From: Candidatus Eiseniibacteriota bacterium
Lineage (GTDB): Bacteria > Eisenbacteria > RBG-16-71-46 > CAVPCR01
Assembly (NCBI GenBank): GCA_963823555.1
Contig: CAWGMA010000001.1
Location: forward strand, 1,024,001 to 1,088,000
Length of the DNA: 64,000 nucleotides
Reading direction: 5' to 3'
Shown here: piece after piece, positions 16,251 to 38,149 of the stretch
How positions within the stretch are numbered: position 1 is the first letter of the stretch
Layout: each line of letters starts with the position of its first letter
Position numbers and translations under genes: made by a program
Notes under the pieces: model-generated
What the model was told of the DNA's origin: nothing
The model's database searches: none
The model's input: only the letters and a program-made list of their open reading frames with translations

Positions 16251-16258
16251 GGGGGGAG

Positions 16259-17742: not shown

Positions 17743-17774
17743 TTCGCGGCGGCGGAGCGGGTCCCGGCAGCACG

Positions 17775-18974
17775 TCAGCGCCCATAGTGCATCTTGATGG
17801 CTCCCCACGTGCTTTCCTCCACCGCTCCCGCGCAACCCACGTCGCGCGCGCCGATCAATCCACAGCCCGCAGGCGCGTTTGCCGGCGCGCAGGGCGAGGA
17901 CTCCGCGAGCGAGTAGTCCGCACAGAAGAAGGGGTCGAGAGAGAAGTTACTGCCGAGGTCGGTTCCACAGATGTCGTCGCCGTCCTCGTTGCCGAACACG
18001 TCACAGCACTCGAAGGTGACCGTGCCTGGGCACGATACTCCTGGTCCCCCCAGGTTGAAGGCAATGATCGACCGCGTGACCCTCGCAGTTGTGGGTCCGC
18101 TCGCAAGGACGCCCGCCCCCAGGTAGCCCCGGTTTCCAACGATGGTGCACTGCTCGATGCGAGCGCCGCCCTCGCCGACCGAGATGCCGCCGCCAACGGA
18201 CTGGTTGTCGACCCCGTTGCTGTTCCCCGCGATCAGGCATCGCGTGATGGTCGGGCTCGAGGTGCCCTCGAACCCGAGTCCCGATCCAGAGCGACCGCGG
18301 TTGCCGGTGATCTCGCAGTCACGGATCACCGGCGACCCGAAGTAGACTCCGATTCCCCCGCCCGAGTTGGTCGACTCGGTGCCGTTGTTCACCACCATGC
18401 ACCGCTCGATCGTCGGTGAACTGACGACCGCGTCGATACCACCGCCGTTCGAGAAGCACTCGTTGTCCCGGATAAGGCAGTCAGCAATCGTGACCGAGGA
18501 GCCCACGAGGTAGATGCCACCGCCCGAGCCAGGACAGAAGTTGTGTTCGACAACGCAGTCTCTGAGCCTGCCATCCACGCCGTAGAGAGCGATTCCTCCC
18601 CCGGAGTCGCCGCCACCACCCTCGATCGTCGTTCCACCCAGGCCGCTGCGGATGGTGAGGCCCTCGAGATCGAGCTCGAGCGGGCCGATCGCGCACAAGA
18701 CACTCAGCGTGTCCGGCCGCGTCGGGGCACTGCCGTCGATGGTCGTTGTGGCGGGACCCGCCAGGGAAGCGATCCGCAGGGACTTGCCGAGGAGAAGAAC
18801 GGTCTCGACGTAGGTCCCTGGCCGAACGAGCACCGTATCGCCGCTTGCAGAGAAGTCCACGGCCGCCTGGATGGTCACGAAATCGTCGGGGACAAACCAG
18901 GTGCTGCTCTGGGCGGCGCCGGCTGCAACCAAAGAAGCAATGGTCATCGCAGCTCGAAAGACCGCGTGGTTCAC
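17775..18974 (-). CDS. secreted right-handed beta-helix (pectin lyase-like) protein, paralog P1
   Basis: GTG start after GAGG; signal peptide; VPDDFVTIQAAVD...VRPGTYVE; GGGI repeats; tail DPFFCADYSLAESSPC...STWGAIKMHYGR. Confidence 0.85.
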   Translation of the reverse strand: MNHAVFRAAMTIASLVAAGAAQSSTWFVPDDFVTIQAAVDFSASGDTVLVRPGTYVETVLLLGKSLRIASLAGPATTTIDGSAPTRPDTLSVLCAIGPLELDLEGLTIRSGLGGTTIEGGGGDSGGGIALYGVDGRLRDCVVEHNFCPGSGGGIYLVGSSVTIADCLIRDNECFSNGGGIDAVVSSPTIERCMVVNNGTESTNSGGGIGVYFGSPVIRDCEITGNRGRSGSGLGFEGTSSPTITRCLIAGNSNGVDNQSVGGGISVGEGGARIEQCTIVGNRGYLGAGVLASGPTTARVTRSIIAFNLGGPGVSCPGTVTFECCDVFGNEDGDDICGTDLGSNFSLDPFFCADYSLAESSPCAPANAPAGCGLIGARDVGCAGAVEESTWGAIKMHYGR

Positions 18975-18982
18975 GGACGCCT

Positions 18983-20125
18983 CTACCTGTACTCCGCCTT
19001 GATCCGGCCCCAGGTGGACGGCTCCACCGCGCCCGCGCAACCCACGTCGCGCGCGCCGATCAAGCCGCAGCCCGCAGGCGCGTTTGCCGGCGCGCAGGGC
19101 GAGGACTCTGCGAGCGAGTAGTCCGCACAGAAGAGCGGATCGAGGTTGACATTGCCGCCTAGATCGACACCGCAGAGGCCATCCTCCGCGTTTCCGAAGA
19201 CATCGTTGCATCGCAATTGCACGTCGGGATCACAGCTCACGCCCCGGCCGGTGTTGTAGGCCACGATGCTGTTGGTGAGCATTCCGGATCGGAGAGCGAC
19301 CGTGACATTGCAGTCGTTCTGGACAAACGTGCTGCTCTCAATCTGCCCGGCGGCTGTGATAAGCCCGTATCCGCCCCCGTCATCTCCATTCTCAAACGCC
19401 AGGAGGTCCATCACGATGACGCCGGAGCCACTTGTGATCAGGAAACCATCACTCGCCTGGCGATTTCCCCGAAGGACACAATCGGAGATTTCAAGGGGGC
19501 CGAATGTGGCCAGAATACCCGCGCTCGCGGCCTGGTTCCCCTCGATCGTAGTGCTCATGAGAACCAAGGAACTGAAGGCGGCTTCCAGCGCGCCGCCGGA
19601 GCGCCCCTGATTGTTGCGGATCTCGGAAGCTACAAGCTCGAGCGAGCTCGAGAACGCGAATATCCCGCCCCCAGGTCCATCAGCGAAGTTGCTTTCAACC
19701 AGACATCGTTCTACTCGACCGATGGTCTGCACGAGGATGATTCCCCCGCCGGCACCAGGCTCGAGTCCGGGGAATGTCGAGCCGCCCGGGCCATTGCGGA
19801 TGGTGAATCCCTCGATCATCAACGCCCTGGGATCCGAGTTCAGGGCACAAATCACGCTCAGGGTATCGGACCGCGGTGGAAAGGCACCGTCTATGATCGT
19901 GACCTCCGGGCCATCCAGCGACCTGAGAGCCAGCGCCTTGTCAACGACGAGGAGATTCTCGAGATATGTACCAGCTCGTACGAGCACCGTATCGGCATCC
20001 GATGAAGCATCGATGGCTTGTTGAATGGTGACGAACTGGTCCGGCACGACCCAGGTATCCGCCACGGTGACATGCGGCACGCCGGATAGACCGAGGAGCA
20101 GAGCAAAGAGACTGCGACACTTCAT
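18983..20125 (-). CDS. secreted beta-helix protein, paralog P2
   Basis: RBS GGGGAGGT, signal peptide, same N-cap; tail STWGRIKAEYR. Confidence 0.85.
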   Translation of the reverse strand: MKCRSLFALLLGLSGVPHVTVADTWVVPDQFVTIQQAIDASSDADTVLVRAGTYLENLLVVDKALALRSLDGPEVTIIDGAFPPRSDTLSVICALNSDPRALMIEGFTIRNGPGGSTFPGLEPGAGGGIILVQTIGRVERCLVESNFADGPGGGIFAFSSSLELVASEIRNNQGRSGGALEAAFSSLVLMSTTIEGNQAASAGILATFGPLEISDCVLRGNRQASDGFLITSGSGVIVMDLLAFENGDDGGGYGLITAAGQIESSTFVQNDCNVTVALRSGMLTNSIVAYNTGRGVSCDPDVQLRCNDVFGNAEDGLCGVDLGGNVNLDPLFCADYSLAESSPCAPANAPAGCGLIGARDVGCAGAVEPSTWGRIKAEYR

Positions 20126-20361
20126 TGCGTTGACCTCCCCGGCGCGCACACCTTCGATGATTGGCGAGCAGGGCGCCTGCCTGGCCGCCCGACGCTGGGG
20201 CCGCTACGCTCGTACGAGCTGGAGGGTGGCCAGGCGCCTTAGTCCCTAGCTCGTGATCGAGCTGGGGCAAGCGCTACTGTGCGTCCTCCTCGACTCTCGG
20301 CGCAAGCGGATTTCCTGGGATAAGATCGGTGGAAGGCTGAAGTTGCGACCCAGGAGCAGCG

Positions 20362-20385
20362 AATCTACAATGCGCGTATTAGATC
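20362..20385. promoter_or_regulatory. palindromic operator-like site, copy 1
   Basis: AATCTACAAT-GCGC-GTATTAGATC in the divergent intergenic region between P2 and P3. Confidence 0.55.
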
Positions 20386-20609
20386 TTGCTCTTGCCTCCA
20401 TGCAACCAGGTTGTGTCCGGGTGCTCGATCGACGACACGCATCGGGGTCACGATCGAGCCGCACCAAAGAAGTCGTCACAGCAGGGAGTCAGTCTCGGAT
20501 AGGCTATACATCGAAACGCAGACGGTCAGCATGAGGGGTGCTTTGCGCTCTGGACCGCGGGCCGGCTCCGTTCTGCTCAGTGCTGGTTGGCGACTGTTTG
20601 GAGGCGTCC

Positions 20610-21791
20610 ATGTTCAAGCTGGCACTCCTTCTCGCTGTGCTTGCGGCATGCTCGGTATCACTGAGTCACGCAGACACGTGGGTCGTTCCGGATGATGCCC
20701 TGACCGTTCAGCTGGCCATCGATGGCGCGACCTCCGGCGACACGGTGCTCGTCCGTCCTGGCACGTATGTCGAGAACCTGCTTCTTCTCGGCAAGTCGCT
20801 GCGCATCGCCTCGCTCTCCGGTCCTGAGGCGACCATCATCGACGGCAGCGCGCCGACGCGGCCCGATACGATGAGCGTCCTCTGCGCCATCGGCCCGCTC
20901 GAGCTCGCCCTTGACGGGTTCACGCTCAGGAATGCCCTGGGGGGGACGACCATCGGGCAGGGCGCTCCAGGCAACTCGGGGGCCGGGCTCGCTCTCTATA
21001 GCGTCGATGGCTCGATCACGAACTGCGTCATCGAGAATAACTACTGTGGGGGGTCCGGCGGTGGGATTCACCTCTTCGCCAGCTCGCCCCGGATTGCCGA
21101 CTGCGTCATTCGACAGAATCAGTGCCTGGGAAACGGGGGTGGTGTCGACGTCTTCGTCTGCTCGCCGACCATTGAGCGCTGCTCGATCACGGACAACGGC
21201 ACGGACTCGACCTGGCTCGGGGGGGGGATCGGGATCTACTTCGGATCGCCGGTGGTCCGAGATTGTGAAGTCCGTCGGAATCAGGGACGTGTTGGTTGTG
21301 GTATCGGGACCCAGGCTACATCGAGCCCTCAGTTGATCGGGCTGCTGATTGCTGAGAACAATCCGCTCGCCGATCTCAATACCGGTAGTGCATTGAGCGT
21401 CGAGGAGGGCAGCGCGCGAATCGAGAACTGCACCATCGTCGGCAATCGCGCCGCAGTCGATGTGTATCTTTCCGGTAATTCCGTGATGAGCCGGTCGATT
21501 GTGGCGTTCAACCTGTGGGGCGAGGCCGTTCGCTGCCGGGGCGACGCCCGGATCGAGTGCTGCGATCTGTTCGGCAACGAGGGGGGCGACGAGCTCTGCG
21601 GCATCGACTCGGGCGGCAACTTCTCTCTTGATCCCCTCTTCTGCACCGACTACTTGCTCGCCGAATCCTCGCCCTGTGCGTCCGCCAACGCCCCCGCGGG
21701 ATGCGGCTTGATCGGGGCGCTCGAAGTCGGGTGCACAGGCGCGGTCGAAGCGAGTTCCTGGGGCGGGATCAAGATGCGGTACCGGCGCTGA
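20610..21791 (+). CDS. secreted beta-helix protein, paralog P3
   Basis: GGAGG RBS, signal peptide, core closest to P1; tail SSWGGIKMRYRR. Confidence 0.85.
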   Translation: MFKLALLLAVLAACSVSLSHADTWVVPDDALTVQLAIDGATSGDTVLVRPGTYVENLLLLGKSLRIASLSGPEATIIDGSAPTRPDTMSVLCAIGPLELALDGFTLRNALGGTTIGQGAPGNSGAGLALYSVDGSITNCVIENNYCGGSGGGIHLFASSPRIADCVIRQNQCLGNGGGVDVFVCSPTIERCSITDNGTDSTWLGGGIGIYFGSPVVRDCEVRRNQGRVGCGIGTQATSSPQLIGLLIAENNPLADLNTGSALSVEEGSARIENCTIVGNRAAVDVYLSGNSVMSRSIVAFNLWGEAVRCRGDARIECCDLFGNEGGDELCGIDSGGNFSLDPLFCTDYLLAESSPCASANAPAGCGLIGALEVGCTGAVEASSWGGIKMRYRR

Positions 21792-21841
21792 GTCTCGACG
21801 ACTCTGCGCGCTCCTGTCACGCGCAGGAGGAGCCAGGATCA

Positions 21842-21878
21842 GGAGGCGATCTTCCTCATCGCGAAGAAGATCGCCTCC
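21842..21878. terminator. hairpin between convergent genes
   Basis: Perfect 13-bp stem GGAGGCGATCTTC / GAAGATCGCCTCC with an 11-nt loop. Confidence 0.55.
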
Positions 21879-21911
21879 CGAACTCACCGCTTGACGAGCG
21901 GTCGTTCCATG

Positions 21912-23153
21912 CTATCGCTCGCGTACCAGCCTGCCTCCGACGTTCTGAGCGTCGTCGGTCATCCGGTAGAAGTAGACGCCTGCTGGCACCCGGCGTCCCG
22001 CCGCATCGCGTCCGTTCCAAACCACAACCGAGCTTCCCTTGCTGCCTAGTTCAGCCACCTGGCGCCCCGTCACGTCGAAGATGGTGATGGGAAGAGCCAG
22101 CGTGCCGTCGAAGACGAAGGTAGCCGCGGTCGAGAACGGATTCGGCCCGACGCGGAGGCGACCCGGAACCGGTACGTCGAGCGGCTCGGCGATCGCGGCG
22201 CCACCGGCACCATAGCGCCAGACCCGACCGATACCGGCCGCGCTCCGGCCCACCGACCATCCGCACTCGGCGGCGGCGAAGTCGATATCCGAGGCCAGGT
22301 AGTCGGCCGGGAACGAGTAGGGAGTCCAGTCGATGCCGCTGTTGGTCGAGTGGAAGTGCCCGTTCTGCTGTGTCAGACCCCACACCGCCGGGGAGTCCTC
22401 GACCCAGGAGAAGGCCATGAGTCGCGCCGACGTGGGACTCGTCACCAGGTTCCAGGTGGCACCCGAATCGGTCGAGCGGTCGAGGGCGTCGAGGTCGCCG
22501 CCGATGAGAGCGACCCCGCTCTCATCGAGCGCGAGGCCGGCGACCTGCCGCACATCGGTCGTGATCGGGTTCCAGCTCGCGCCGCCATCGGTGGTCCGCC
22601 ACACGACCCACTGGCTCGTGCCAAAGGCGCCGATGGTCGAGCCGATCCAGGAGCAGGAGCCGGAAAGGCCGAACCCCGGGCCTGCGGCCGGCGCGGTGGG
22701 CGAGGGCAACCATGAGGCCCCGCCGTCCGCCGTCTCGAGGATCACCCAGCTTCCGCCCACGGGATCCCCCACAGCCCAGCCATGGAGGTCATCGAAGAAG
22801 CAAAGGCCGTTGATGAACGACCCCGTCGCCGTGGCGACGAGATCCCAGTTTGCTCCGCCGTCAGTCGTACGGAAGAGACGTCCCGTCTCGTCACCGACAA
22901 CGCAGGTCATTGCATCGCGAGCGCTCAGCGCCCAGATGTCGCCGCTCGGAGCAGGCACCGGTTCCCAGTTCGCCCCACCGTCCACGGTGCGAATGACCAT
23001 CCCGCCGTCGCCGGCGGCCCAGGCGATCTCCGTGGTGACCGCGTCGACCGCATACAAGGCCTGGGACGCGTTGGCGACCTGCTCGACCCAGACGCCGCCC
23101 CAGGCCAGCCCAGGCGCCAGCATGCAGAAGAGAAAGAGTGAAAGGACTCTCAT
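21912..23153 (-). CDS. secreted YCF48/BNR-repeat beta-propeller protein with C-terminal FlgD-Ig/T9SS-like domain
   Basis: Signal peptide, repeated RTxDGGANW boxes, GPNPF...IFDVTGRQV...WNGRD...GVYFYR. Confidence 0.85.
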   Translation of the reverse strand: MRVLSLFLFCMLAPGLAWGGVWVEQVANASQALYAVDAVTTEIAWAAGDGGMVIRTVDGGANWEPVPAPSGDIWALSARDAMTCVVGDETGRLFRTTDGGANWDLVATATGSFINGLCFFDDLHGWAVGDPVGGSWVILETADGGASWLPSPTAPAAGPGFGLSGSCSWIGSTIGAFGTSQWVVWRTTDGGASWNPITTDVRQVAGLALDESGVALIGGDLDALDRSTDSGATWNLVTSPTSARLMAFSWVEDSPAVWGLTQQNGHFHSTNSGIDWTPYSFPADYLASDIDFAAAECGWSVGRSAAGIGRVWRYGAGGAAIAEPLDVPVPGRLRVGPNPFSTAATFVFDGTLALPITIFDVTGRQVAELGSKGSSVVVWNGRDAAGRRVPAGVYFYRMTDDAQNVGGRLVRER

Positions 23154-23174
23154 TGCTTCATCACCTCCCTCGCC

Positions 23175-23552
23175 TTATGGTGGGCAAGCAGAAGGTTGCC
23201 ACATCGACTCACACGAATCAGAGAGGTCGGAACACGCCCCCGACTCCTCATCCCAGTAGCGTTCGACCAGGTACTTCTGATGACCGCTTGGGTCATACTC
23301 GCAATCGCAAATGCTGTTATCTGGACCTTCGTAGATTAGCGTCCACTCGTTGTCCCCGCAGTGCTTGCGGTAGAACTTGAAGCAGGCGAAGTCACCAGCA
23401 TGAACAGTAATCTGGATTCCCCAACCCGACACCTCACAGCGCGAGACGCAGGATGTGAACGTCGGATCACAGGGGGGGGATTGACCCCAAGCAAGTGCAG
23501 GGAGGACTACAAGTACTCCGATGAGGACGGCCGTGGCCATCGTCGGTCTCAT
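23175..23552 (-). CDS. small secreted Cys-rich protein (125 aa, 10 Cys)
   Basis: AAAGGAGG RBS and signal peptide MRPTMATAVLIGVLVVLPALAWG. Confidence 0.75.
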   Translation of the reverse strand: MRPTMATAVLIGVLVVLPALAWGQSPPCDPTFTSCVSRCEVSGWGIQITVHAGDFACFKFYRKHCGDNEWTLIYEGPDNSICDCEYDPSGHQKYLVERYWDEESGACSDLSDSCESMWQPSACPP

Positions 23553-23606
23553 TGGGCCTCCTTTGGGTCCTGAGGACCCGGCAAAAGCCCGGGACGCGCA
23601 CCCCTG

Positions 23607-23635
23607 AGTTTGCCGCTGTCCATTCTCCACGTCAA
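23607..23635 (-). promoter_or_regulatory. putative sigma70 promoter
   Basis: TTGACG-N17-CAAACT on the minus strand upstream of ATG 23552. Confidence 0.5.
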
Positions 23636-23690
23636 GGGGTGACTTTCCGGGTCAAGGCCCGTGAGTGGCCATTCCGGGGGGACTTAGCAA

Positions 23691-23714
23691 AATCTAAAAG
23701 AACAATTGTAGATT
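23691..23714. promoter_or_regulatory. palindromic operator-like site, copy 2
   Basis: AATCTAAAAG-AACA-ATTGTAGATT between the divergent Cys-rich genes. Confidence 0.6.
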
Positions 23715-23812
23715 CGCGTTCTGGACGCGTATGGGGGTTCGAGGATATGATCCTGTCTTGCGTGAATGTTGTCCCGGCGCTGGGTGTGACGTGTGGCTTC
23801 TGGAGGGCAACA

Positions 23813-24259
23813 ATGAAAGTCATTGCCGTTGCGGTGGCTATAGCGATCGTCGGTGGATTTCCCGCGTGGCTGCAGTCGGGTCCACTGTGGTCTTGTTACA
23901 TTTCGGTGTGTATCTATGAGGATAGCGATCCTCCCTGCTCAAGCTGTCCAGATACATTGGTTTGCCAGCCTGTCTACGTGAGTCGGAAGATCTGCTGGCA
24001 GTGGCATGGCGATCCCTGTGGGGAGGACGCCGTATGTGGGGTGGACACGTTTAGAGTGTACAGAGACGAAACTCTTATCGCGACCGTGGAGTGTCCGCCA
24101 TCTTGCTACTGCCACTCGACCCCACCGCATACTGTGAGTGGGTGCTTTCGAATTGGCGATTCCGGCTACAATAGCCAGGAGTGCTACACCTACACGGTCA
24201 AGTCATACCTGAATGGTGATCAGAATGGAGAGATGAGTGTCCTGGCTGGCGATTGTTAG
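23813..24259 (+). CDS. small secreted Cys-rich protein A (148 aa, 14 Cys)
   Basis: GGAGG RBS, signal peptide, clear paralog of 33072-33524. Confidence 0.85.
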   Translation: MKVIAVAVAIAIVGGFPAWLQSGPLWSCYISVCIYEDSDPPCSSCPDTLVCQPVYVSRKICWQWHGDPCGEDAVCGVDTFRVYRDETLIATVECPPSCYCHSTPPHTVSGCFRIGDSGYNSQECYTYTVKSYLNGDQNGEMSVLAGDC

Positions 24260-24314
24260 GGCCCGAGCACGTCTTTCGCTTGTGCTGCGGAATCGCCTCG
24301 ATGAGGTGCAGTCC

Positions 24315-25505
24315 ATGATGTATCTCTTGATCTTCGCGTTTCTTCTATGCAGTGGGATGCCAGCTGCCGTGACCGCCGAGACCTGGGTCGTGCCCGATCA
24401 GTTCTTGACCATCCAGGGGGCGATCGACGCATCATCGAACGCCGACTCGATCGTGGTCCGTCCCGGCACATACATCGAGAATCTTCTGATTGCAGGCAAG
24501 TCCATCACGCTCGCCTCGCTCCATGGTCCTGATGTCACCGTGATCGATGGTAGCGCGCCGACCCGACCCGACACGCTGAGCGTGGTCACAGCGATCGAGG
24601 TCGAGGATCTGGTCATCGACGGATTCACGATCCGCCATGGCCTGGGTGGCATCGACTTCGGCGAGCTGACCGGGGGCGACTCCGGAGGGGGCTTCGCCCT
24701 CGGGGCCGTGCGCGGCGTGATCCGCCACTGCGTGATCGAGGACAACTACTGCGGCGGACAGGGTGGGGGCTTGCACCTTGTGGCCAGCGATCCTCGGATC
24801 GAAGACTGTGTCATCCGTGACAACGAGTGCTTCGGTAATGGGGGTGGGGTCAACATCTTCCTGGGGTCTCCCGTGATCGAGCGTTGCGCCATCGAGAACA
24901 ACACCGCTGGCTACGCCGGGGGAGGCGTCTTCATGCGTTTCAGCATGCCGCAGATCACCGATGCCCGTGTGGCCGGCAACCACGCTCGTTATGGAGGTGG
25001 CCTGTATTCCGAACAGTCATCCAGCCCCGCGGTGACGAGATCGGTGTTCTCCGGCAACTCCACCGACAGTGGGGAGGGGGCCGGCGGTGGGATTGCATGC
25101 CGGGATGGCAGCCCGCGGGTCGAGCATTGCACGGTTGTCGGGAACCTTAGCCCCTTGGGGGGCTCGGGCGTCTGGTTCAGCAACGTGTTGAGCGCAGTCC
25201 TTGCGCACTCGATCGTAGCCTTCAACGACGGGGGGCCGGGCTTGGTCTGCGGGGGGTCTTTGACGGTTGAATGCAGCGACATCTTCGGGAACGGCGGCGG
25301 CGATGAGCTCTGCGGCACCGATCTGGGAGGGAATTTCGCACTCGATCCGCTCTTCTGCAGCGACTACTCGCTCGCCGAGTCCTCGCCCTGTGCGTCCGCC
25401 AATGCGCCGGCGGGCTGCGGCCTGATCGGGGCGCTCGACGTGGGCTGCACCGGCGCGGTCGAAGCGAGCTCCTGGGGTCGGATCAAGGCGAGATACAGCA
25501 ATTGA
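24315..25505 (+). CDS. secreted beta-helix protein, paralog P4
   Basis: GAGGTG RBS, signal peptide, core closest to P6; tail SSWGRIKARYSN. Confidence 0.85.
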   Translation: MMYLLIFAFLLCSGMPAAVTAETWVVPDQFLTIQGAIDASSNADSIVVRPGTYIENLLIAGKSITLASLHGPDVTVIDGSAPTRPDTLSVVTAIEVEDLVIDGFTIRHGLGGIDFGELTGGDSGGGFALGAVRGVIRHCVIEDNYCGGQGGGLHLVASDPRIEDCVIRDNECFGNGGGVNIFLGSPVIERCAIENNTAGYAGGGVFMRFSMPQITDARVAGNHARYGGGLYSEQSSSPAVTRSVFSGNSTDSGEGAGGGIACRDGSPRVEHCTVVGNLSPLGGSGVWFSNVLSAVLAHSIVAFNDGGPGLVCGGSLTVECSDIFGNGGGDELCGTDLGGNFALDPLFCSDYSLAESSPCASANAPAGCGLIGALDVGCTGAVEASSWGRIKARYSN

Positions 25506-25630
25506 TTGAAAGCCAAGGTGTTAGCTGTCACCTGCAGAGTCGAGAAGAAGGGGGAGACTAAAATCCGTTAATACCCCTTTGTGGCTGTCCCGGGGGTTCG
25601 AGCGGCCTGTCGCTCCGGGGGATAGGAGAG

Positions 25631-26669: not shown

Positions 26670-26685
26670 CCATGACTGATCGGGG

Positions 26686-28719
26686 ATGAACGGGGGGATT
26701 GCCGTGCGCGGGTACCGCGGTTTCATCGACGCCGTGGTTGCGGTCCTGGTCGCGCTGGCCTTGGCCCATGGTTGCGGCTCCGAGCCGACGAGCGTGCGGG
26801 TCCCGAACCAGCCGCCGCGGATCCGGCTCACGGCGGGGCCGGTGCGCGACTCCCTCCACAGCTATCGGGTCACCTTCGAGTGGACGGCCTTCGATCCCGA
26901 CGGCGTGATCGCCGGGTTCGAGTACGCGCTCGACGACACGAGCGTTGCCGACTCCCTTCACGCTACCGCTGAAACAGCCGTTACCCTCCGCCTGCCGATC
27001 GTCGAGGAGGGAAAGAGCGCCGTCGACACGCTCGCCGCCTACCACGTCTTCCACGTCCGGGCTGAAGATGGGGAGGGCCTCTGGTCCGCCTTCGCCCGCG
27101 CCCGCTTCAACGCCTACACCGTGGCACCGACGACGACCATCACGCTCCCCGATCCGCGCTTCTATCCCCGGGTCGGCACCACCTTCGACGTGCTCTGGAC
27201 GGGGGAGGATCTCGACGGCGGCGGGGCGCCGCTCCGCCACTCGTTCCGCCTCGTCTCGGTGCCGCCGGAGAGCGCGGAGGTGGTGGATGTCGGCCGGCTC
27301 GAACGCCCGGGCGGCGGGCCGCCGTGGTCCCCCTTCAGCGCGGAGACCAGGGCCCGCTTCGAGGCGCTGCCCGCGGGTGCGTATCTCTTCGGCGTGCGCG
27401 CCCGCGACGAGGCGGGGGCCACCGAGCCCGACCTCCTGATCGGGCGGAACGTGGTGCGGCTCCGGCTCGTCACCGAGCCCGGGCTTCCTGAGCTCACGCT
27501 CACCGCCGATGGCCGGACAGTTGTGCTGCCCACAGAAGAGGAGGATGAGAAGACCTTCTCCATGATCTCCGGGCAGTACAAGCTCTTCACGATCGAGGCC
27601 AGCGCGGCCGCCTACGCCGCGCAGATCGTCGAGCTCGCCTACGGCGTCGATCTCGAGAGCGTGGATCCCGGCGATCCCGGCTGGCGTCCGCTCGCGGGGA
27701 ACGAGCTCGCGCTCCGGCTCGAGAACCCGCCCGGGGTCGAGGACTCGCTGCGCGTCCTCTATCTCAAGGTGAGGGATTCGATCGGGCAGTATCTCATCGC
27801 CGATGCGTTCCTCGCCCTCGGGCCGCCCGACTTCTCGCGCGATGTCCTCTACGTCGACGACATCGGGAACGACCGGCAGGGGAGCGCCGCCGCGCCGGCC
27901 GATACCGATCACGATCGGTTCATGATGGAAGTGCTCCTCGCCGAGGCGCATCGCCGCGGGTACCGGCTCGACCAGTACGAGGTGCAGCGGGCGGATGGCG
28001 GGATCATCGTCGGCGCCCCGGACCTGGCCATGCTCCGCCGCTACCGGCTGCTGGTGTGGAGCGTGCGTGCGACCAACACCGGCCTCCAGGCGACCATGGC
28101 GCCCGGCGCTCCCGGCGGCCCGACATCGGAAGCCGTGGCCGAGTACATGGCACTCGGGGGGAACCTGTGGCTCGTCGGGAATCCGGCGCTCGCCAACCTC
28201 GCCCTGCCGCCGACACCGAACCCCTACGGCTATGCCGCAGGCGAGCTCGGCTACGACGTGCTGCATCTCGAGAGCGAGCGCGATGGCAGCCAGATCGTGG
28301 CCGGCGGCATCCTCCAGGCCGGGCGATCGCTCCTCAACCGCCGGATCGACGGCCTCGCCGCGGCGGTGCCGACGGCTTTGGCCCGGGCCGAGGGCTGGCC
28401 CGAGCTCATCGCCGCGCGGGAGCCGTACAACGGAACCATCGAGGGCATCCCCGGCTGCGAGGGGATGACGATCGGCTACAACCACGGCGCCCGCCCCGGC
28501 GTCTTCGATACGCTCTACACCTTCTATCCGAACGCGCAGCGCCTGGTGCCGCCGGTCTACTCGCGGTTCACCGACGCGCCGTGCGCCTTCCGTTACCAGG
28601 GTCCGCTCGGCGGCAAGGTGATCGCCATGGCCTTCCCCGTCGACTGGTGGGCGGACGGAGCGGCCGATAGCCTCGGCCAGAGCGCGCTCCGCTGGTTCTT
28701 CCCGGAGGAGCCACGGTGA
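26686..28719 (+). CDS. putative lipoprotein with Ig/Fn3-like repeats, function unknown
   Basis: Hydrophobic N-terminus with lipobox-like LAHGC; NQPP...W.AFDPDG and HVRAED/GVRARD beta-sandwich motifs. Confidence 0.7.
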   Translation: MNGGIAVRGYRGFIDAVVAVLVALALAHGCGSEPTSVRVPNQPPRIRLTAGPVRDSLHSYRVTFEWTAFDPDGVIAGFEYALDDTSVADSLHATAETAVTLRLPIVEEGKSAVDTLAAYHVFHVRAEDGEGLWSAFARARFNAYTVAPTTTITLPDPRFYPRVGTTFDVLWTGEDLDGGGAPLRHSFRLVSVPPESAEVVDVGRLERPGGGPPWSPFSAETRARFEALPAGAYLFGVRARDEAGATEPDLLIGRNVVRLRLVTEPGLPELTLTADGRTVVLPTEEEDEKTFSMISGQYKLFTIEASAAAYAAQIVELAYGVDLESVDPGDPGWRPLAGNELALRLENPPGVEDSLRVLYLKVRDSIGQYLIADAFLALGPPDFSRDVLYVDDIGNDRQGSAAAPADTDHDRFMMEVLLAEAHRRGYRLDQYEVQRADGGIIVGAPDLAMLRRYRLLVWSVRATNTGLQATMAPGAPGGPTSEAVAEYMALGGNLWLVGNPALANLALPPTPNPYGYAAGELGYDVLHLESERDGSQIVAGGILQAGRSLLNRRIDGLAAAVPTALARAEGWPELIAAREPYNGTIEGIPGCEGMTIGYNHGARPGVFDTLYTFYPNAQRLVPPVYSRFTDAPCAFRYQGPLGGKVIAMAFPVDWWADGAADSLGQSALRWFFPEEPR

Positions 28720-31088
28720 AGCGCGGCCTCGCTCTCGCCAGTGTCGCGGCCACGCTGGTGCTCCTCGTCCGCCCCGCGGGCGCCGTCCTCGAGCGCTCGG
28801 GGGAGCGCGTGCACGACGCCGGTGCGTTCCGCCTCTTCATGACCAACCTCGGGGTCCTCGGCAATCCCTGGTATCCCTCGTTCTCGGATCTGCCCTCGCT
28901 CGAGTGGCCGGCGGGCTCGGCGGCCGAGTACCTGAACGAGGCCGGGCTCTGGATCGGGGCGCGCGACCGGCGCGGCATCGTCGCCGGGGTCTCGACGGCG
29001 TGCCCCGTGAACGAGCTCCGTCCCGAGCTCGATCCCTCCGCGCACATCTTCGAGAGCTTCGACGGCGCCCCGGGCACGCGCCGCCTCGGCACCACGCCGA
29101 GCGTCGAGGAGGCCGACGACGACGGCGACGGTCTCATCGACGAGGAGTTCCTGAACGGGCGGGATGATGACGGCGACGGCCTGATCGATGAGGACTATGT
29201 AGCGATCGGGGAGCAGACCTTCGCCTGCGAGTATCGCGACGACACGCCTGAGGCGTCGGCCCAGCTCCTCGCGCACCGCCCGCTCCATGTCGCGGTGCGG
29301 CAGACGAGCTTCACCTGGACCGAGGGTATCGGCGCTCTCGATCGCACCGCGGCCGTCGCCTACACGATCGAGAACACGGGCGAGAGCTCGCTCTATGACG
29401 TTTACCTCGGCTTCTATGTGGATCCGGACGTCGGTCCCAAGGCGAGCTCGGGCTACTGGCGGGACGATCGCTACAGCGTCGAGGCGATCAGCGGGACCTT
29501 TCCCACGCGGGGGGCGGCGGTGGTGCGGGGCTGCGAGACGACGCCGTTCGAGCGCATCGCCGCCATCGTCGAGGATGTGCCCGATGGGAGCGGGGGCGGC
29601 GCCTCGGGAGGCGATGCGCCGGGGCTCGTCGCCGCCCTGATCCTCGATCACACGACCAACCGCTGGGGGTTCCGCGCCCCCGAGGCGATCGGGACGAGTG
29701 CCGTCATCCACCTCGCCGGGCGGCCGGTCCGCGACGCCACCAGGGAGGATATCGCCGATCAGGAGAAGTACGCGCTCATGGCGTCGAAGCGGGTGATGGG
29801 GGATCTCGGCGTCGATGATCACCGCTTCGTGCTCGTCGCCGGTCCCTTCTCCGAGCTCTCGCCGGGAGGCTCGCTCGAGCTCACCGTGGCGCTCGTTCTC
29901 GCCCGCGACCGATCGGAGCTCGAGTCGACCGTGTCGGATCTCGTCGCCGAGTTCCACGGGCAGTGGTTGAACCTGGACGGGCTCGGGGCCACCGGCCGGA
30001 ACGGGCAGGAGGCGTGCCTGACGCCCGAGGACGCACGCTTCTGCGGGTTCGCACCCTTCCTCGTCGACCACGATTGCGATGAGCTCGAGACATCTTCCCG
30101 CGGGCACGGCGGATGCCGGAACACGATCATCCAGACCCGCTGCCCGCACCTCTCCACCTGTCCCCCGATCTGCGAGTGCACCCAGCGGCTCCTCGTCCTC
30201 TCGCCGCAGTGCACCTACGCCAACTTCGACTGCGACCCCTGCACGCCGGCGAACGTAGCCGGCGAGTCGCTCGTGCGCTGGGTGGGAACGGCGACCCACG
30301 TGAGCTCCCGCCCGCTCGCGAAAGAGGTGACCGCCGGCGATCACGAGGTGACGATCGAGTGGGACAACTCGGCCGAGCTCCCGATCGCGGCGCGCACCTT
30401 GCCCCCGGTGGCGGGCTACCGGGTGTGGCGGGCGACCGGGTTCACGCGGCCCCCGGGAGCGAGCGGGCCGACCGCCGGGAGCTGGGAGCTCGTCGCCGAG
30501 CTGCCGCTGCCAGGAAGCGGCCTCCCGCCCCCGGCCGATCCCTTCATCATCGAGGACACCGAGATCATCGGCACCGTGCCCGGCCCCTTCGATTCGCTCT
30601 ATCCGCAGTACGCGGTCGGGCGCTACCGCTTCGCCGATTCCGAGGTTCAGAACGGGTACGCGGTCTTCTATGACGTGACCCCGTTCGCTCTCGTCGAGGA
30701 GGGCGGGATCACGGTCGTCGAGAGCCTCGATCCCAGGGCGCGAAGCGGCGAGGAGGTGTTCCCGCTCGAGTCCCCCGGACCGGGCGCCGAGATCCGGGTC
30801 GTCCCGAACCCCTATGTGGGTTCCGCACCCTGGGACCTGAGCCCGAACCGCACCGACCCATCGGGGCGGAAGATCCTCTTCTCGGGGTTGCCGTCGGCAC
30901 CGGCGCGCATCGACATCTACACCGCGGCGGGCGATCGCGTGCGCACGCTCGAATCCGACGGGCGCACCGGGAGCGCGGCCTGGGATCTGCTCTCGCGGAA
31001 CGGGCAGCCGGTGGCCTCCGGCATCTACCTCTACACGGTCGCGGCGCCGGGTATCCAGCACCGCGGCCGCCTCGTGATCGTCAAATGA
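28716..31088 (+). CDS. large secreted protein with T9SS-like C-terminal domain
   Basis: Signal peptide, TNLG...EWP.GS..EYL...GLWIGA, two DDDGDGLIDE loops, VVPNPY...IYTAAGDRVRTL...ASGIYLY. Confidence 0.75.
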   Translation: MKRGLALASVAATLVLLVRPAGAVLERSGERVHDAGAFRLFMTNLGVLGNPWYPSFSDLPSLEWPAGSAAEYLNEAGLWIGARDRRGIVAGVSTACPVNELRPELDPSAHIFESFDGAPGTRRLGTTPSVEEADDDGDGLIDEEFLNGRDDDGDGLIDEDYVAIGEQTFACEYRDDTPEASAQLLAHRPLHVAVRQTSFTWTEGIGALDRTAAVAYTIENTGESSLYDVYLGFYVDPDVGPKASSGYWRDDRYSVEAISGTFPTRGAAVVRGCETTPFERIAAIVEDVPDGSGGGASGGDAPGLVAALILDHTTNRWGFRAPEAIGTSAVIHLAGRPVRDATREDIADQEKYALMASKRVMGDLGVDDHRFVLVAGPFSELSPGGSLELTVALVLARDRSELESTVSDLVAEFHGQWLNLDGLGATGRNGQEACLTPEDARFCGFAPFLVDHDCDELETSSRGHGGCRNTIIQTRCPHLSTCPPICECTQRLLVLSPQCTYANFDCDPCTPANVAGESLVRWVGTATHVSSRPLAKEVTAGDHEVTIEWDNSAELPIAARTLPPVAGYRVWRATGFTRPPGASGPTAGSWELVAELPLPGSGLPPPADPFIIEDTEIIGTVPGPFDSLYPQYAVGRYRFADSEVQNGYAVFYDVTPFALVEEGGITVVESLDPRARSGEEVFPLESPGPGAEIRVVPNPYVGSAPWDLSPNRTDPSGRKILFSGLPSAPARIDIYTAAGDRVRTLESDGRTGSAAWDLLSRNGQPVASGIYLYTVAAPGIQHRGRLVIVK

Positions 31089-32473
31089 ACGCGCGGAGAG
31101 TCATCGCTGCGGCCGCCGTCCTCCTCGCGCTCGCCGCGCTCCGCTGCGGCGACGAGGGGCCGCCGGTCGCCGTCGATCGCGATCCGCCGCGGCTCGTCTC
31201 TGTGGCCCCGGCGGACGGGGCGACGGCGGTGCCGGTAGCCAGCGTCGTCCGCGCCCTCTTCTCGGAGCCGGTGGTCCTCGATTCGCTCGCGCCCCCGCCG
31301 CTCAGGGTCGCGGGTCCAGGCGGCGAGCCCATGCCCGGGGAGGTCGCTCTGGACACGACCGGGAGCATCCTCACCTTCACAGCCACCGATAGCTTGAGTG
31401 CCGCCAGCGACTATCGTGCGGTCGTCGCGGCCGGCATTGCCGATCGCGCGGGGAACGTGCTCCTCGACTCGACCGTCGTCCGCTTCACGACCGCGCTCGA
31501 TTTCTACTCGATCGGCCGCCTCTTCACCGCCAACGCCAACACCTTCGATGTGAGCGCACTCGACATCCTGACCTACGAGCCGGTCGCGGGGTCCCCGGTC
31601 GCGCTCGGTGCCCGCCCGCTCAGCCTCGCGGCGGTTCCCGCGTGGGGCGAGGTCTTCGTCTTGTATGCGATCGGGCCCGGCGCGGGGGTCCTCGTCCTCG
31701 ATGGGCGATCGCTCGCGGTACTGCGCGACACGGGGCCGGTGTTCCCTCGCGACGCGACCGATCTCGCCGTGAGCGACGCCGAGGAGCTCCTCTTCGTCGC
31801 CTCGCCCGCGGCGAACGCGCTCTTCGTTTATGACGCGCGGACGATGGGGGAAGCCCGCCCGCCGCTCGTCTTCCCCCAGGCTGGAGCGAACCCGGTGCGC
31901 CTCGCCGTCGCCAGTCGCTTCGGCTGGCTTTTCGCCGGCCTCGAGGGCGGTGCGGTCCTCGCCGCCTATGATCTCGAGACGCTGGCGCCGATTGCGGGCT
32001 TTCCCGTGCCCGCGGTGCGCCGCATCCACTCGATCGCCGTCGACGAGACGCGCGCCCGCGCCTGGGTCGGCGGGAGCCAGCGCTATGCCGTCGTCGATCT
32101 CGTGAATCCCGGCCGCACCATCACCTTCGCCTGGCCGACGATGCGCGCCTGCCTGCCGCCACGCTGCGAGACGCGAGGATGGGGCCTCTTCCTGTCGCCG
32201 GCCTTCGATCGCGTGTATCTCCTCAACCGGCAGGAGGCGGTCGCCTCCGTGGGTCTCTCCAGCCTGGAAGAGTCCACCGCGCTCGACGGCAGCGTGAACG
32301 GGTACCAGGCGGGCTTCGCCCAGAATCCGCGCACCGGAGCGATCATGGTCGTCAATGCGCAGAGCGCGGCCGCGGGCCTGGTCGAGGTGGATCCGTGGGA
32401 ACTCCGCCAGACGACGCTCCTCCCGATCCCGGTCGGCGGCGGTGGGGTGGTGGCCGTTGCGGTTCTGCCGTAG
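31085..32473 (+). CDS. lipoprotein with bacterial Ig-like domain and YncE-like beta-propeller
   Basis: Lipobox-like ALRCG, PADGATAVP...FSEPV...IADRAGN...FTT, propeller repeats. Confidence 0.75.
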   Translation: MNARRVIAAAAVLLALAALRCGDEGPPVAVDRDPPRLVSVAPADGATAVPVASVVRALFSEPVVLDSLAPPPLRVAGPGGEPMPGEVALDTTGSILTFTATDSLSAASDYRAVVAAGIADRAGNVLLDSTVVRFTTALDFYSIGRLFTANANTFDVSALDILTYEPVAGSPVALGARPLSLAAVPAWGEVFVLYAIGPGAGVLVLDGRSLAVLRDTGPVFPRDATDLAVSDAEELLFVASPAANALFVYDARTMGEARPPLVFPQAGANPVRLAVASRFGWLFAGLEGGAVLAAYDLETLAPIAGFPVPAVRRIHSIAVDETRARAWVGGSQRYAVVDLVNPGRTITFAWPTMRACLPPRCETRGWGLFLSPAFDRVYLLNRQEAVASVGLSSLEESTALDGSVNGYQAGFAQNPRTGAIMVVNAQSAAAGLVEVDPWELRQTTLLPIPVGGGGVVAVAVLP

Positions 32474-32940
32474 GGGTGTCTTCTTGACCCTGTCCAAGAG
32501 CCTGACCCCATGTAAGAGACCGAAGAGACTTGCGGATCGGGGGTGCTCTGGTGCTTCTCAGCACGCCATCCCTTGAGCCTCTAACATCTCCTCGCCGGTC
32601 ACACGACGGTTGTGAGCGGACTCGAGTGCCTCGCGAAGCGCTGAGCGAAGGAAGAGGTCGCGGGTGGGCCGGTAGACATTCGTCACCGCCCAGTCGCGCC
32701 TATGCCGAGCGCGGCACAGTGGCGCAAACTGTGGAATGGATACAGCCGCGCACTACCATGAAGAACCGAGCCACCAGGGAATCGGGTCCGAGCTTATCAG
32801 TGGCGCGGCGACTCAGCGATGGAGGGTGTCGTCGCGACCAGCGAGCGGCTAGGCCGCCTGCTGAAATACAATCACCGGCGAGCGGCTGGAGATGGGTGTC
32901 GTCGATCGAGTGTTCGGACAGCGCGGGATCGAAACCGCAA

Positions 32941-32964
32941 AATCTGCAATCAGGATTGTAGATA
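32941..32964. promoter_or_regulatory. palindromic operator-like site, copy 3
   Basis: AATCTGCAAT-CAGG-ATTGTAGATA, followed by TTGCAA-N17-GATTAT, upstream of 33072. Confidence 0.6.
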
Positions 32965-33071
32965 TCCTGCCGCCATTCTGCTTGCAACACCGGTTTGAAC
33001 GCCCGATTATCCCTCACTGGGTCACCTGCGGCCTGAATCCTCCACGCCGGCAGATATGAAAGGAGACTTCC

Positions 33072-33524
33072 ATGAAGTCCTATGCCCTCGTGCTGGTCAT
33101 CGCTGCCGCCCTGGCGATCACCATCACGGAACCTCAGGCAGGCATCGACTACGATTGCTACCTGTCCATATGCGTGTACGAAAACAGCGACCCTCCTTGC
33201 GCCGCCTGCCCTGACACATTGTCCTGCCAGGCGTCCTACAGCCCCAGGAAGATCTGCTGGAAGTGGAACGGAGACCCGTGCGGTGACGACGCTGTGTGTG
33301 GCCCAGACACGTTCAGAGTCTACCGAGACCAGACGCTAATAGCGACTGTTCCATGTCCCTATGCGAATAACGCGTGTTGCTGTGACCGCAATCCATGTGA
33401 GGGGCAGTGCTTTCGGGTAGGAGACTCAGGATACGACGAGGAGGAATGCTACACGTACACAGTGAAGGCCTATAAGGAAGGGCAGCAAATCGGCGAGCAC
33501 AACATCCTGGCCGGAGAGTGCTGA
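33072..33524 (+). CDS. small secreted Cys-rich protein B (150 aa, 16 Cys)
   Basis: AAAGGAGA RBS, signal peptide, paralog of 23813-24259. Confidence 0.85.
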   Translation: MKSYALVLVIAAALAITITEPQAGIDYDCYLSICVYENSDPPCAACPDTLSCQASYSPRKICWKWNGDPCGDDAVCGPDTFRVYRDQTLIATVPCPYANNACCCDRNPCEGQCFRVGDSGYDEEECYTYTVKAYKEGQQIGEHNILAGEC

Positions 33525-33551
33525 TTTCGGTGCGGAGAAGGAGCACGTCCG

Positions 33552-34760
33552 ATGAAGCAAGTCTCTCTTCCTGTTGTCGCAGCTCTGCTGCTGATTTCGG
33601 GGCCGCTCATTGCTGACGACATCGTGGTCCCGGATGAGTTCGTGACGATACAGGGCGCTGTCGATTTCGCTTCGAGCGGCGACCGGATCTGGGTGCGGTC
33701 TGGAACCTACGTCGAGAACATCCTCGTTCTCGGAAAGTCAATCCATCTCACGTCGTTCGATGGCTCAGCCGTCACGATCATCGATGGAAGCGCCCCGACG
33801 CGTCCGGATACCTTGAGCGTGATCACGGCCATTGGCGCCGACGATTTCGTTCTCGCCGGTTTCACGCTGCGCAACGCCCACGGGGGTATCGATTTTGGTG
33901 AGCAGTCCGGAGACGACTCGGGCGGGGGCCTGGCGTGTGGAGCTACGAACGGCGCGGTCCGAAACTGCGTGATCGAGGACAACTTCTGCGGTGGTTCAGG
34001 CGGCGGCGCTCACCTCGTGCTTAGCGATCTACTGATCGAGGATTGCATTGTGCGCTACAATGAATGCGGTCTCGACGGCGGTGGCATCCACACGTTCCTT
34101 GGTTCCCCTAGCATCCAGCGATGCAGAATCGAGAATAACCGGGGAGGCGAAGGCGGTGCTGGCGGTGGAATCTGCCTCAGGTTCTTTGGCTCGCCTCAGA
34201 TCGCAGACTGCGTGATATCAGGGAATCGTGCCCGCGGAGGAGCGGGGATCGCAGCGCAAGAAGGGTCCAGCCCGACGATCCTGCGAACGCTGATCACCGG
34301 CAATTCCGCCGCCACCTACGGCGCGGTGGGTGGCGTTCAGCTGAATAGTGGAAGTCCACGCATCGAAGGCTGCACCGTAGTTGGCAACTTCGGCCCAGGG
34401 AACGCAGGGATCTCGTTTGTGACCGCGCTGCCCGCAGTTCTTTCTCACTCGATTGTGGCCTTCAACCAGGGTGGGCGGGGCCTGAGCTGTGTTGGCGGCA
34501 CGCTGGCCGTCAGCTGCTGCGATCTTTTCGGCAACGAGGAGGGCGATGAGTTCTGCGGCATCGATGCGGGCGGCAACTTCTCTCTCGATCCGCTCTTCTG
34601 CGCCGACTACTCGATCGCCGAGTCCTCGCCCTGTGCGCCCGCCAACGCGCCTGTTGGGTGCGGGTTGATCGGGGCCCGCGATGTGGGCTGCACTGGGGCA
34701 ATCGAAGCCAGCACCTGGGGCCGCATCAAGGTGCGATTGTCCGTCCCGAAAACTCCGTAG
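33552..34760 (+). CDS. secreted beta-helix protein, paralog P6
   Basis: AAGGAG RBS, signal peptide; tail STWGRIKVRLSVPKTP. Confidence 0.85.
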   Translation: MKQVSLPVVAALLLISGPLIADDIVVPDEFVTIQGAVDFASSGDRIWVRSGTYVENILVLGKSIHLTSFDGSAVTIIDGSAPTRPDTLSVITAIGADDFVLAGFTLRNAHGGIDFGEQSGDDSGGGLACGATNGAVRNCVIEDNFCGGSGGGAHLVLSDLLIEDCIVRYNECGLDGGGIHTFLGSPSIQRCRIENNRGGEGGAGGGICLRFFGSPQIADCVISGNRARGGAGIAAQEGSSPTILRTLITGNSAATYGAVGGVQLNSGSPRIEGCTVVGNFGPGNAGISFVTALPAVLSHSIVAFNQGGRGLSCVGGTLAVSCCDLFGNEEGDEFCGIDAGGNFSLDPLFCADYSIAESSPCAPANAPVGCGLIGARDVGCTGAIEASTWGRIKVRLSVPKTP

Positions 34761-34852
34761 CGCGGGTCTGTTGCACTTTAGGTGGCATGACAGACCCTGG
34801 GAATGCTGGTCTTTCAGGCGACACGCAGTTTCGCGCAGTAATGTGACACCGG

Positions 34853-36062: not shown

Positions 36063-36190
36063 TCCTGGCCGCCGGGACCTTCAGGTACACTCGACCCTTC
36101 CGATTGAGGTCCTCCAGGCCGCAGGCTAGATTCCTTCGTTCTTGGTTGAGGAAGAGCGATGTGCTCGTCGTCATGCGCGGACACGAACGA

Positions 36191-36214
36191 TCTCCACAAA
36201 GAGAGTTGTATATG
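36191..36214. promoter_or_regulatory. degenerate palindromic operator-like site, copy 4
   Basis: TCTCCACAAA-GAGA-GTTGTATATG, 13 of 20 arm positions match the consensus. Confidence 0.35.
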
Positions 36215-36571
36215 ATCAAGTCGCAACCACATGAGCCGATCCACAGCGTCTATAGGGTGGCATTCTCTCGGTGCTCCTGTATCGTCAAGCTCTGTGGATG
36301 CGGAAGAGACAGGTCGGCGACTGACCGTTGCTCCCGAACGGCAAGCGCCTCCTGAATCGAGACTGACCTGCAGCGTGGCGAATGAGATCCGCCGGCCAGG
36401 CCGTGGTACCGGATTTCCGCTTCCCAAAGACCACTACCCAGAGCGGACAGAGGCCTTGGTGTGAAGGCCGTCATGATGACACCACAAGGATCCGGGAACG
36501 AGTGAGACGCCCGGAGAGGTACGAGTTGACCCGCGTTGCGCGGCGCGACGCACAGCGAAGAGAGAGGTCCC

Positions 36572-38120: not shown

Positions 38121-38149
38121 TTGACGCCCCGCCGGCCCCGGGATAGATT
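38121..38149 (+). promoter_or_regulatory. putative sigma70 promoter of the lysS operon
   Basis: TTGACG-N17-TAGATT. Confidence 0.6.

Follow-up and report, generated by a model that had tools for sequence, protein, structure and literature searches.

Matched 3' Tails on Divergent Bodies among the Beta-Helix Paralogs of a 20-kb Island and a Chimeric Seventh Copy

The island and its six beta-helix genes

The window, a stretch of 64,000 nt, contains a 20-kb island (17743..38182) that extends from a gene ending at 17742 to lysS. These two flanking genes lie only about 130–160 nt apart in two relatives, and the island is missing from the site in both of the relatives examined. Two segments of the island have a GC content of 63%, compared with 68–70% outside. 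No tRNA integration site was found in the window, and the Rfam families gave no match in 17000-38500. Two housekeeping genes within the same window, a purL-like gene (13825-17161) and lysS (38183-39692), are frameshifted.

All six paralogs of ~1.1–1.2 kb described in an earlier note on this DNA were found in the island, although one of them, P5, is not intact. P1 (17775..18974, minus strand) consists of a signal-peptide-like start, a beta-helix, a Cys-rich cap, and a WGxIK end, and its GTG start codon lies 8 nt past the stop codon of P2 (18983..20125, minus strand), a beta-helix paralog whose core sister is P5. Between P2 and the divergent P3 (20610..21791, plus strand; core sister, P1), a decayed end that we infer to be IS-like (20414..20443) matches 32891-32920 in inverted orientation at 83%. 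P4 (24315..25505, plus strand) and P6 (33552..34760, plus strand) are each preceded on the same strand by a small Cys-rich exported-type gene (23813..24259 and 33072..33524, respectively); the two small genes are paralogs, and P4 and P6 likely arose by duplication of this two-gene unit. P5 (25625..26669, start approximate, plus strand) is 5'-truncated, lacks the signal peptide and the first N-cap motif, and carries a one-base frameshift in its tail; it is likely a pseudogene, although the frameshift by itself could be an assembly error. The other five of the six genes are full length with a signal-peptide-like start, as read by eye.

The island also holds remnants of mobile elements. The 3' end of a small tyrosine recombinase gene (32554..32750, minus strand) has related remnants on contigs C3 and C4; the genome has 14 PF00589 matches, all of them outside the window. 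The 3' end of a transposase-like gene (32745..32927, plus strand), which we take to be of the rve family, is 81% identical to C3:628835-629015. An IS-like scar (34738..34856, plus strand) took the place of the last codons of P6, giving the end ...LSVPKTP; the scar is missing from a relative's contig (run X3), which ends in RYRD-stop.

All six paralogs exceeded the cut-off of the PF13229 beta-helix profile, and the AlphaFold2 model of P4 is a parallel beta-helix (pLDDT 94.2). A Foldseek search with this model returned the pectate lyase Pel9A (1ru4), RbmB, and Rhombotarget A, with E about 1e-4 and a best TM of 0.53 among the matches listed; these weak fold matches share the right-handed beta-helix with P4, whereas sequence identity is just 9–15% in the listed matches. 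They are too generic for an enzyme assignment, which we rejected, and no NCBIfam family models other than repeat models were over cut-off in the five full-length paralogs. The paralogs are likely exported right-handed beta-helix proteins, with a predicted activity that is likely glycan-binding, adhesive, or glycan-cleaving at the surface. Their bodies are 39–63% identical as protein, and the cap residues P345, S357, P358, C359, and G372 are nearly invariant among 62 sequences.

The WGxIK end, comprising the last ~15 residues, is a genome-wide tag and nothing particular to the six paralogs, as it has 109 six-frame matches in the genome, including a few that are spurious or duplicates. This short tag was not matched by any Pfam or NCBIfam model, and its position suggests a sorting role. 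The genome has 36 Cys-cap sites, one of them a contig-overlap duplicate; as counted by eye, about 18 run into a CTD-like end and WGxIK follows at about 17. The cap continuing into a CTD-like end at those other sites resembles T9SS type A cargo with a FlgD-Ig CTD, whereas the six window genes end in the short WGxIK tag only. No TIGR04183 or FlgD-Ig domain was detected in the five full-length paralogs with NCBIfam or in all six with Pfam; two neighbour genes passed TIGR04183, and a sprA-like gene in the genome exceeded its cut-off.

Silent-codon tracts in the tails and the chimeric copy P1'

The 113 nt that P1 (17817..17929) and P2 (19022..19134) had been said to share with four mismatches proved exact on recount; all four mismatches are synonymous, and 0/37 residues differ. 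Silent codons of this minus-strand tract are identical at 33 of 37 positions (p = 0.00005 by permutation; 0.001 after Bonferroni correction), compared with 47% for the gene as a whole and 37% in head and core. The P1 copy is bounded on both sides, and the last ~14 codons of P1 beyond it remain P1's own. The stretch of P4 at about 25325-25394 is identical to P6 at 18/18 silent codons (p = 0.00015; Bonferroni, 0.003). With P1', a seventh copy on contig C3, included, 3 of 20 pairs retained a high-identity tract after Bonferroni correction. P3 is P6-like at about 21558-21644 (32/38 silent codons identical), a borderline tract (Bonferroni, 0.051) that may mark an older exchange. The tail peptide reported to be common to P3 and P4 is indeed present (P3, about 21681-21777), but the match is weak, being non-significant on silent sites (permutation p = 0.096) and having a tail clade support of 45/73.

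The mosaic is confined to the last ~230 nt of the genes, which encode the Cys-rich cap, and the tract boundaries are staggered from about -90 to +51, that is, over about 140 nt. The mosaic head proposed earlier was not borne out, as no head-plus-core tract reached p < 0.05 in any of the 20 pairs (smallest p = 0.051). We therefore rejected mosaicism of head or core; the head tree sets P4 weakly with P2/P5 (71/94). Exchange of the cap alters at most 4–10 of 37 residues.

P1' (C3:655876-657096) carries the body of P1 and the tail of P6 including the IS-like scar of P6, the first 30 nt of which also terminate P1'. Its sites change from P1-type to P6-type within positions +17 to +27 relative to the DP.FC anchor, and the tail shared with P6 begins in that gene at 34605-34613. 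In this tail, 46/49 silent codons are identical between P1' and P6 (p = 0.00005), and only 7/25 between P1' and P1; the bodies of P1 and P1' differ at 26/305 synonymous codons. In short-read runs X1–X4, which yielded low-depth contigs throughout and in which joints with a side under 35 were ignored, the P1' joint was spanned with 0 differences by a 420-nt contig of run X1, which may be the source sample. One body/tract boundary of P1 was spanned with 1 difference by a 151-nt record from another study (X2) and the other by an X1 contig, and the P2 tract boundaries were not bridged by 31 nt on each side among the short-read pieces listed. The suggested inversions through the conserved ends are conceivable in principle, the C3 joint being the product expected of a crossover between the opposed tails of P1 and P6. 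However, a reciprocal gene with the P6 body and the P1 tail was not found in the assembly, and the sole opposite-strand joint in the low-depth short-read contigs matches the C3 copy exactly.

Segment trees and outside homologs

Separate trees of head, core, and tail, a check proposed in the earlier note, were built, and core and tail proved incongruent by AU tests. The core pairings previously read from the sequence hold, with P2+P5 at 97/95, P1(+P1')+P3 at 99/98, and P4 and P6 in one clade (92/93) that includes two sister-genome genes. P1+P1', supported at 100/99 in the core, was rejected in the tail (AU 5e-58). Conversely, P1+P2 (89/93) and P1'+P6 (94/97), both unstarred, group in the tail tree and were rejected in the core (AU 8e-5 and 4e-5, respectively). 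The DNA tail tree, built on 105 nt, has no starred branch, and the protein tail tree comprises about 48 residues.

In a comparison that added 11 homologs of other organisms, the tails had an identity of 0.86 inside this genome and 0.66 to the outside homologs, whereas body identity was 0.52 and 0.49, respectively. The closest body to that of P3 is the foreign P0011 (0.75), and its closest tail is that of P4 (0.92). A genome-only clade was rejected for bodies (AU 1e-6) and not for tails (AU 0.43). By these comparisons, tails group by genome and bodies with genes of other organisms, with weak tree support: in the protein tail tree, the foreign P0008 nests inside this genome's tails and P3+P0011 was not rejected (AU 0.147). 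The two homologs of the sister genome pair in the tail tree (90/89), and a silent tract between them was not significant (p = 0.54). A second subfamily of four genes with a T9SS-like tail follows the same pattern as the six paralogs, with tails at 89–93% nucleotide and 78–86% silent identity vs bodies at 49–67% and 38–48%. In a search for close relatives with several copies, matches at 1e-40 were obtained in 1 of 30 other genomes. A contig scan of genomes additionally returned three distant Planctomycetota loci at 29–33%, which were left out of the analysis.

Origin of the matched tails and known counterparts

We consider it highly probable that these are old divergent paralogs with recently matched tail DNA, most likely produced by RecA-type recombination that repeatedly overwrote or swapped the conserved cap stretch. 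RecA-type ectopic recombination is likely given the staggered tract boundaries, with neither an intact recombinase seen in the island nor a reverse transcriptase found; recA is present in the genome. Strong protein constraint would keep the tails similar enough to exchange strands, every such event would reset tail identity, and the bodies would be too diverged to recombine. Bounded tracts such as that of P1/P2 would result from double crossovers and the tail swap of P1' from a single crossover, after which IS activity likely carried P1' to another island. The outcome would be concerted evolution of the cap with the variable core almost unchanged. Gene conversion or tail exchange, as first supposed, is supported by silent-codon tracts, AU tests, and outside homologs, and the chimeric P1' makes this support stronger than the earlier note could see. 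Its companion idea, cassette shuffling as a way to diversify a surface protein, finds no support, because the exchange is confined to the best-conserved segment, homogenises the cap, and leaves head and variable core untouched.

The same signal is expected from intragenomic exchange and from DNA of a related strain, in which case related-strain DNA with other island arrangements would have recombined at the conserved tail, a homology handle through which whole bodies could be added or replaced by the same chemistry with an external donor. The absence of the island from the relatives' sites and its low-GC segments agree with this, as do the age of the P1/P1' bodies, about that of the P1/P2 tract (4/37), and the P2- and P4-like pieces of run X3 with 6–9% differing letters. 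Yet for each pair found, this genome itself contains the donor tail as well as the recipient tail, and the P1/P2 tract is shared by adjacent genes and is bounded on both sides, so we regard an external donor as improbable. Far less credit is due to a programmed shufflon or cassette system, in which a tyrosine recombinase acting at one fixed site would flip or exchange tails so that bodies vary by phase. Although both tail orientations occur, the P1' joint is the expected P1/P6 inversion product, and the recombinase remnant has relatives in other paralog-rich islands, this system is largely refuted by the lack of a fixed crossover site among the staggered boundaries, by a window recombinase reduced to its 3' remnant, by the missing reciprocal gene and the exact match of the lone opposite-strand joint to the C3 copy, and by the few residues that a near-identical cap swap would change.

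Hardly any weight attaches to an origin without DNA exchange, by purifying selection on the cap together with GC-rich codon bias. Distant homologs also conserve the cap, silent identity is high along the DYSxAESSPC stretch in several pairs, and selection may account for part of the weak P3/P4 signal; however, family codon usage predicts 15.2/37 identical codons for P1/P2 and 17.2/41 for P1'/P6, vs the 33 and 38 seen (segments picked post hoc, with p-values overstated), which refutes it for these two pairs, and it fails for the shared IS-like scar and the lost P1/P1' tail identity. An error-prone long-read assembly that collapsed or mis-joined similar tails is equally hard to credit: the housekeeping frameshifts and overlapping contig ends speak for it, but the tracts differ at synonymous sites, unlike a collapse, and short-read pieces cross the P1' joint and the P1 boundaries. 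Antigenic variation by silent cassettes is not supported, since none of the 20 pairs has a head or core tract. A diversity-generating retroelement was rejected, as the genome, 92.5% complete, has 0 PF00078 matches. Integron cassettes were likewise rejected for the window: the genome's own ~160-bp attC-like repeat has 22 matches, all at C3:411-433 kb, and no copy in the window.

The closest known case appears to be the 3' concerted evolution of H. pylori babA/babB. In PMC3960876 and PMC2795765, which deal with babA/babB and homA/homB and cite Pride and Blaser 2002 on it, the 5' and middle segments group by gene across strains and the 3' segment by genome, a pattern ascribed to intragenomic gene conversion and accompanied by chimeric genes. 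Here, too, paralogous envelope-protein-type genes follow orthology in the body and genome at the 3' end, with chimeras. The proteins are unrelated, however; the present case involves 6–7 copies plus a second subfamily in an environmental uncultured organism, its tract is shorter (110–230 nt; about 500–600 nt with the CTD), and babA has an expression switch, whereas none is evidenced for the beta-helix paralogs. The S. aureus lpl tandem cluster (PMC2568036) is likewise an island paralog cluster with recombinase remnants only, incongruent segment trees, conversions, and translocations, in which a conserved intragenic stretch is the homologous recombination site. In lpl this stretch sits mid-gene, with crossovers bringing two variable halves into new combinations, whereas here it is terminal and the protein is barely altered.

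A further reading, which we hold to be a long shot, is that the Cys-rich cap acts as a plug-in socket: beta-helix bodies arriving on islands or integron cassettes would be refitted, by cap recombination, with the host's current cap and sorting end (WGxIK or T9SS-like CTD), the swaps being selected as licensing foreign passengers for export. That two subfamilies in this genome show the cap pattern speaks for it; against it, the P1/P2 tract ends about 4 codons before the WGxIK tag, and the tag DNA is only 56% identical.

The recombination pattern preferred here has long been known from Helicobacter adhesins and reveals no new variation system. What it offers is a marker-tagged case of concerted evolution of a 3' segment, from the genome of an uncultured organism that is likely an Eisenbacteria member. 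The IS-like scar serves as a tracer, showing that a tail swap really took place and which way it likely went, and the case indicates that tail-based orthology and short-read assembly can mislead for this beta-helix family.

The paralogs and their island

The six beta-helix paralogs were found where the earlier note had placed them: P1 at 17775-18974 (-), P2 at 18983-20125 (-), P3 at 20610-21791 (+), P4 at 24315-25505 (+), P5 at about 25625-26669 (+), and P6 at 33552-34760 (+). All six passed the PF13229 profile, and the proposed core pairings (P1/P3, P2/P5, and P4/P6) were recovered. P5 lacks the signal peptide and the first N-cap motif and carries a one-base frameshift in its tail; because housekeeping genes of the assembly are also frameshifted (a purL-like gene at 13825-17161 and lysS at 38183-39692 are split, likely by assembly errors), the 5' loss is the only safe evidence for decay of P5. 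Contig ends of the assembly overlap (C3 end with C1 start, 90%; C2 end with C4 start, 98.6%).

In genomes of the same genus (G001) and the same family (G002), lysS lies about 130-160 nt beyond the counterpart of the gene that ends at 17742, indicating that 17.7-38.2 kb is an island. Its paralog-bearing parts have a GC content of 63%, versus 68-70% outside, and contain remnants of transposases and small recombinases. A small tyrosine recombinase gene (~200 aa) is present as broken copies at 32554-32750, C3:602-643 kb, and C4:10.8 and 14.4 kb; many such copies are scattered over the paralog-rich islands, where no intact one was seen, and none of the 14 tyrosine recombinase matches of the genome lies in the window. 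The genome (92.5% complete) contains recA, and no RT was found in it. To judge by the labels of homologous genes, the organism is likely Ca. Eisenbacteria.

Other features of the island were also recorded. A three-gene block (26686-32473, 71% GC) is paralogous to one at C1:439-445 kb, with 65-68% nucleotide identity. In G001, a 77% match to it is separated by about 7 kb from a P6-like gene. The segment 34846-35940 duplicates, at 96% identity, the 3' part of a FlgD/T9SS-tail gene (C4:109308-110402). A 62-nt direct repeat (79%) of the lysS upstream region, at 36086-36147 and 38103-38164, flanks a 2-kb segment with a fragmented candidate gene, whose pieces we take to be FAD-oxidase-like; the repeat pair is possibly an integration scar. 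Small Cys-rich proteins with signal-peptide-like starts are encoded at 23175-23630 (-), 23813-24259, and 33072-33524, none of the three matching Pfam or NCBIfam; further such genes lie at C3:629335, 636121, 642093, and 645278. Genes of this type, in the window and on C3, are often located directly 5' of a beta-helix gene.

Exchange in the tail

In a GENECONV-like test of our own, codons with the same residue were scored for each pair and their order was permuted (20,000 shuffles). High-identity tracts were tested in 20 pairs among P1-P6 and P1', a seventh copy on contig C3, and a low-identity tract in the 21st pair, P1/P1'. Three of the 20 pairs passed Bonferroni correction, with 33/37 (P1/P2), 46/49 (P1'/P6), and 18/18 (P4/P6) silent codons identical; P3/P6 was borderline (32/38, 0.051 after correction), and P3/P4 was not significant in the permutation test (p=0.096). 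All five tracts fall within the last ~230 nt, and tract starts are scattered (about -90 to +51). Head and core alone gave p<0.05 in none of the 20 pairs, with silent identities of 0.33-0.52. Thus, of the mosaic that had been claimed for head, core, and tail, the tail stands, and the head and core fall. The reported 113-nt match of P1 and P2 was confirmed, its 4 mismatches all being synonymous; from family codon usage, 15/37 identical codons were expected for this pair (segments chosen post hoc). Taken together, exchange is confined to the tail, with staggered ends and one clean chimera.

The DNA core tree grouped P1 with P1' (100/99), a grouping rejected in the tail, and the tail tree grouped P1 with P2 (89/93) and P1' with P6 (94/97), both rejected in core and head. 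With 11 homologs of other organisms from the top of the homolog listing, tail identity was 0.86 within the genome (P5 excluded) versus 0.66 to outsiders, and body (head plus core) identity was 0.52 versus 0.49. In this set, the closest body to P3 was foreign (0.75) and its closest tail was that of P4 (0.92); the closest body to P6 was also foreign (0.70). The tail trees come from short alignments and have weak branch support, with one foreign tail nested among those of this genome.

A motif search detected 36 Cys-cap sites in this genome, and among them tail homogenisation recurs in a second subfamily. In its four genes (C2:706062, C3:634648, C3:638370, and C3:640274), the cap plus a T9SS-like domain (about 500-600 nt) is 89-93% identical in nucleotides (silent, 78-86%), and the bodies are 49-67% identical (silent, 38-48%).

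The chimeric copy P1'

P1' was found at C3:655876-657096 in a search of the genome (4.62 Mb, four contigs). It matches P1 in the head and core (92-95% identity) and P6 in the tail (95-98%). Informative sites turn from P1 type to P6 type between +17 and +27 relative to the DP.FC anchor, and the switch falls within 9 bases common to both (17910-17918 and 34605-34613 of the window). Both P6 and P1' terminate in ...LSVPKTP, which is encoded by a repeated IS-like end present at several further places. In the sister genome, two homologs read ...RYRD after the tag and one stops there; on a contig of short-read run X3, a P6-type tail also ends RYRD-stop, and the 119-nt scar is missing between it and the same downstream neighbour. 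These observations make P6 the likely donor. One short-read contig of 420 nt, from run X1 (possibly the source sample), reads through the P1' joint with no differences. Pieces from X1 and from X2, a run of another study, cross the boundaries of the P1 tract; among the short-read pieces listed, none crosses those of P2.

The P1' joint is what would be expected if the tails of P1 and P6, which lie in opposite orientations, had crossed over, so a past inversion through them, as the earlier note envisaged, is possible. The reciprocal gene was not detected, and nothing pointed to ongoing switching.

Elsewhere on C3 (409234-432900), an attC-like repeat of ~160 bp has 22 matches with single genes between them and adjoins a divergent integron-integrase-like gene (locus L030:35-1651; TIGR02249 best, 208.9 bits, below the 265 cut-off). 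The cassettes, labelled by eye, include beta-helix/Cys-cap genes, WGxIK proteins, and toxin-antitoxin-like pairs; the array is likely a chromosomal integron.

The conserved cap and its proposed maintenance

P4 was modelled as a parallel beta-helix (62 sequences, pLDDT 94.2), with fold matches to generic beta-helix glycan enzymes and binders. The exchanged stretch forms a confident loop region that follows the final strands; the WGxIK end is a low-confidence helix. About 100 proteins of the genome (109 raw matches) carry this tag, [ST]WGxIK followed by a few residues, at their C terminus, including those at window 17775-17820 and the P2-P6 ends. Among beta-helix proteins, either the tag or a T9SS-like C-terminal domain follows the same Cys cap, so that the tag takes the position of the relatives' CTD-like end. 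The genome has a sprA-like gene, and the paralogs are presumably exported and surface-located.

In H. pylori, gene conversion drives concerted evolution of the 3' segments of babA/babB and homA/homB, and chimeras occur (PMC3960876, PMC2795765); the island-borne lpl cluster of S. aureus recombines at a conserved intragenic stretch (PMC2568036); and domain rearrangement generates variation in surface proteins of P. gingivalis (PMC5266723). Our search, whose coverage took in few subscription papers, returned none on this beta-helix family or the WGxIK tag.

The earlier note had proposed that exchange diversifies a surface protein. The P1/P2 event could have altered no more than 4-10 of the 37 residues, indicating that exchange homogenises instead. 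Tail exchange is real, well supported, and ordinary in kind. The constrained cap may be the sole stretch similar enough for homologous recombination; exchange would maintain its likeness, and the bodies would be frozen out.
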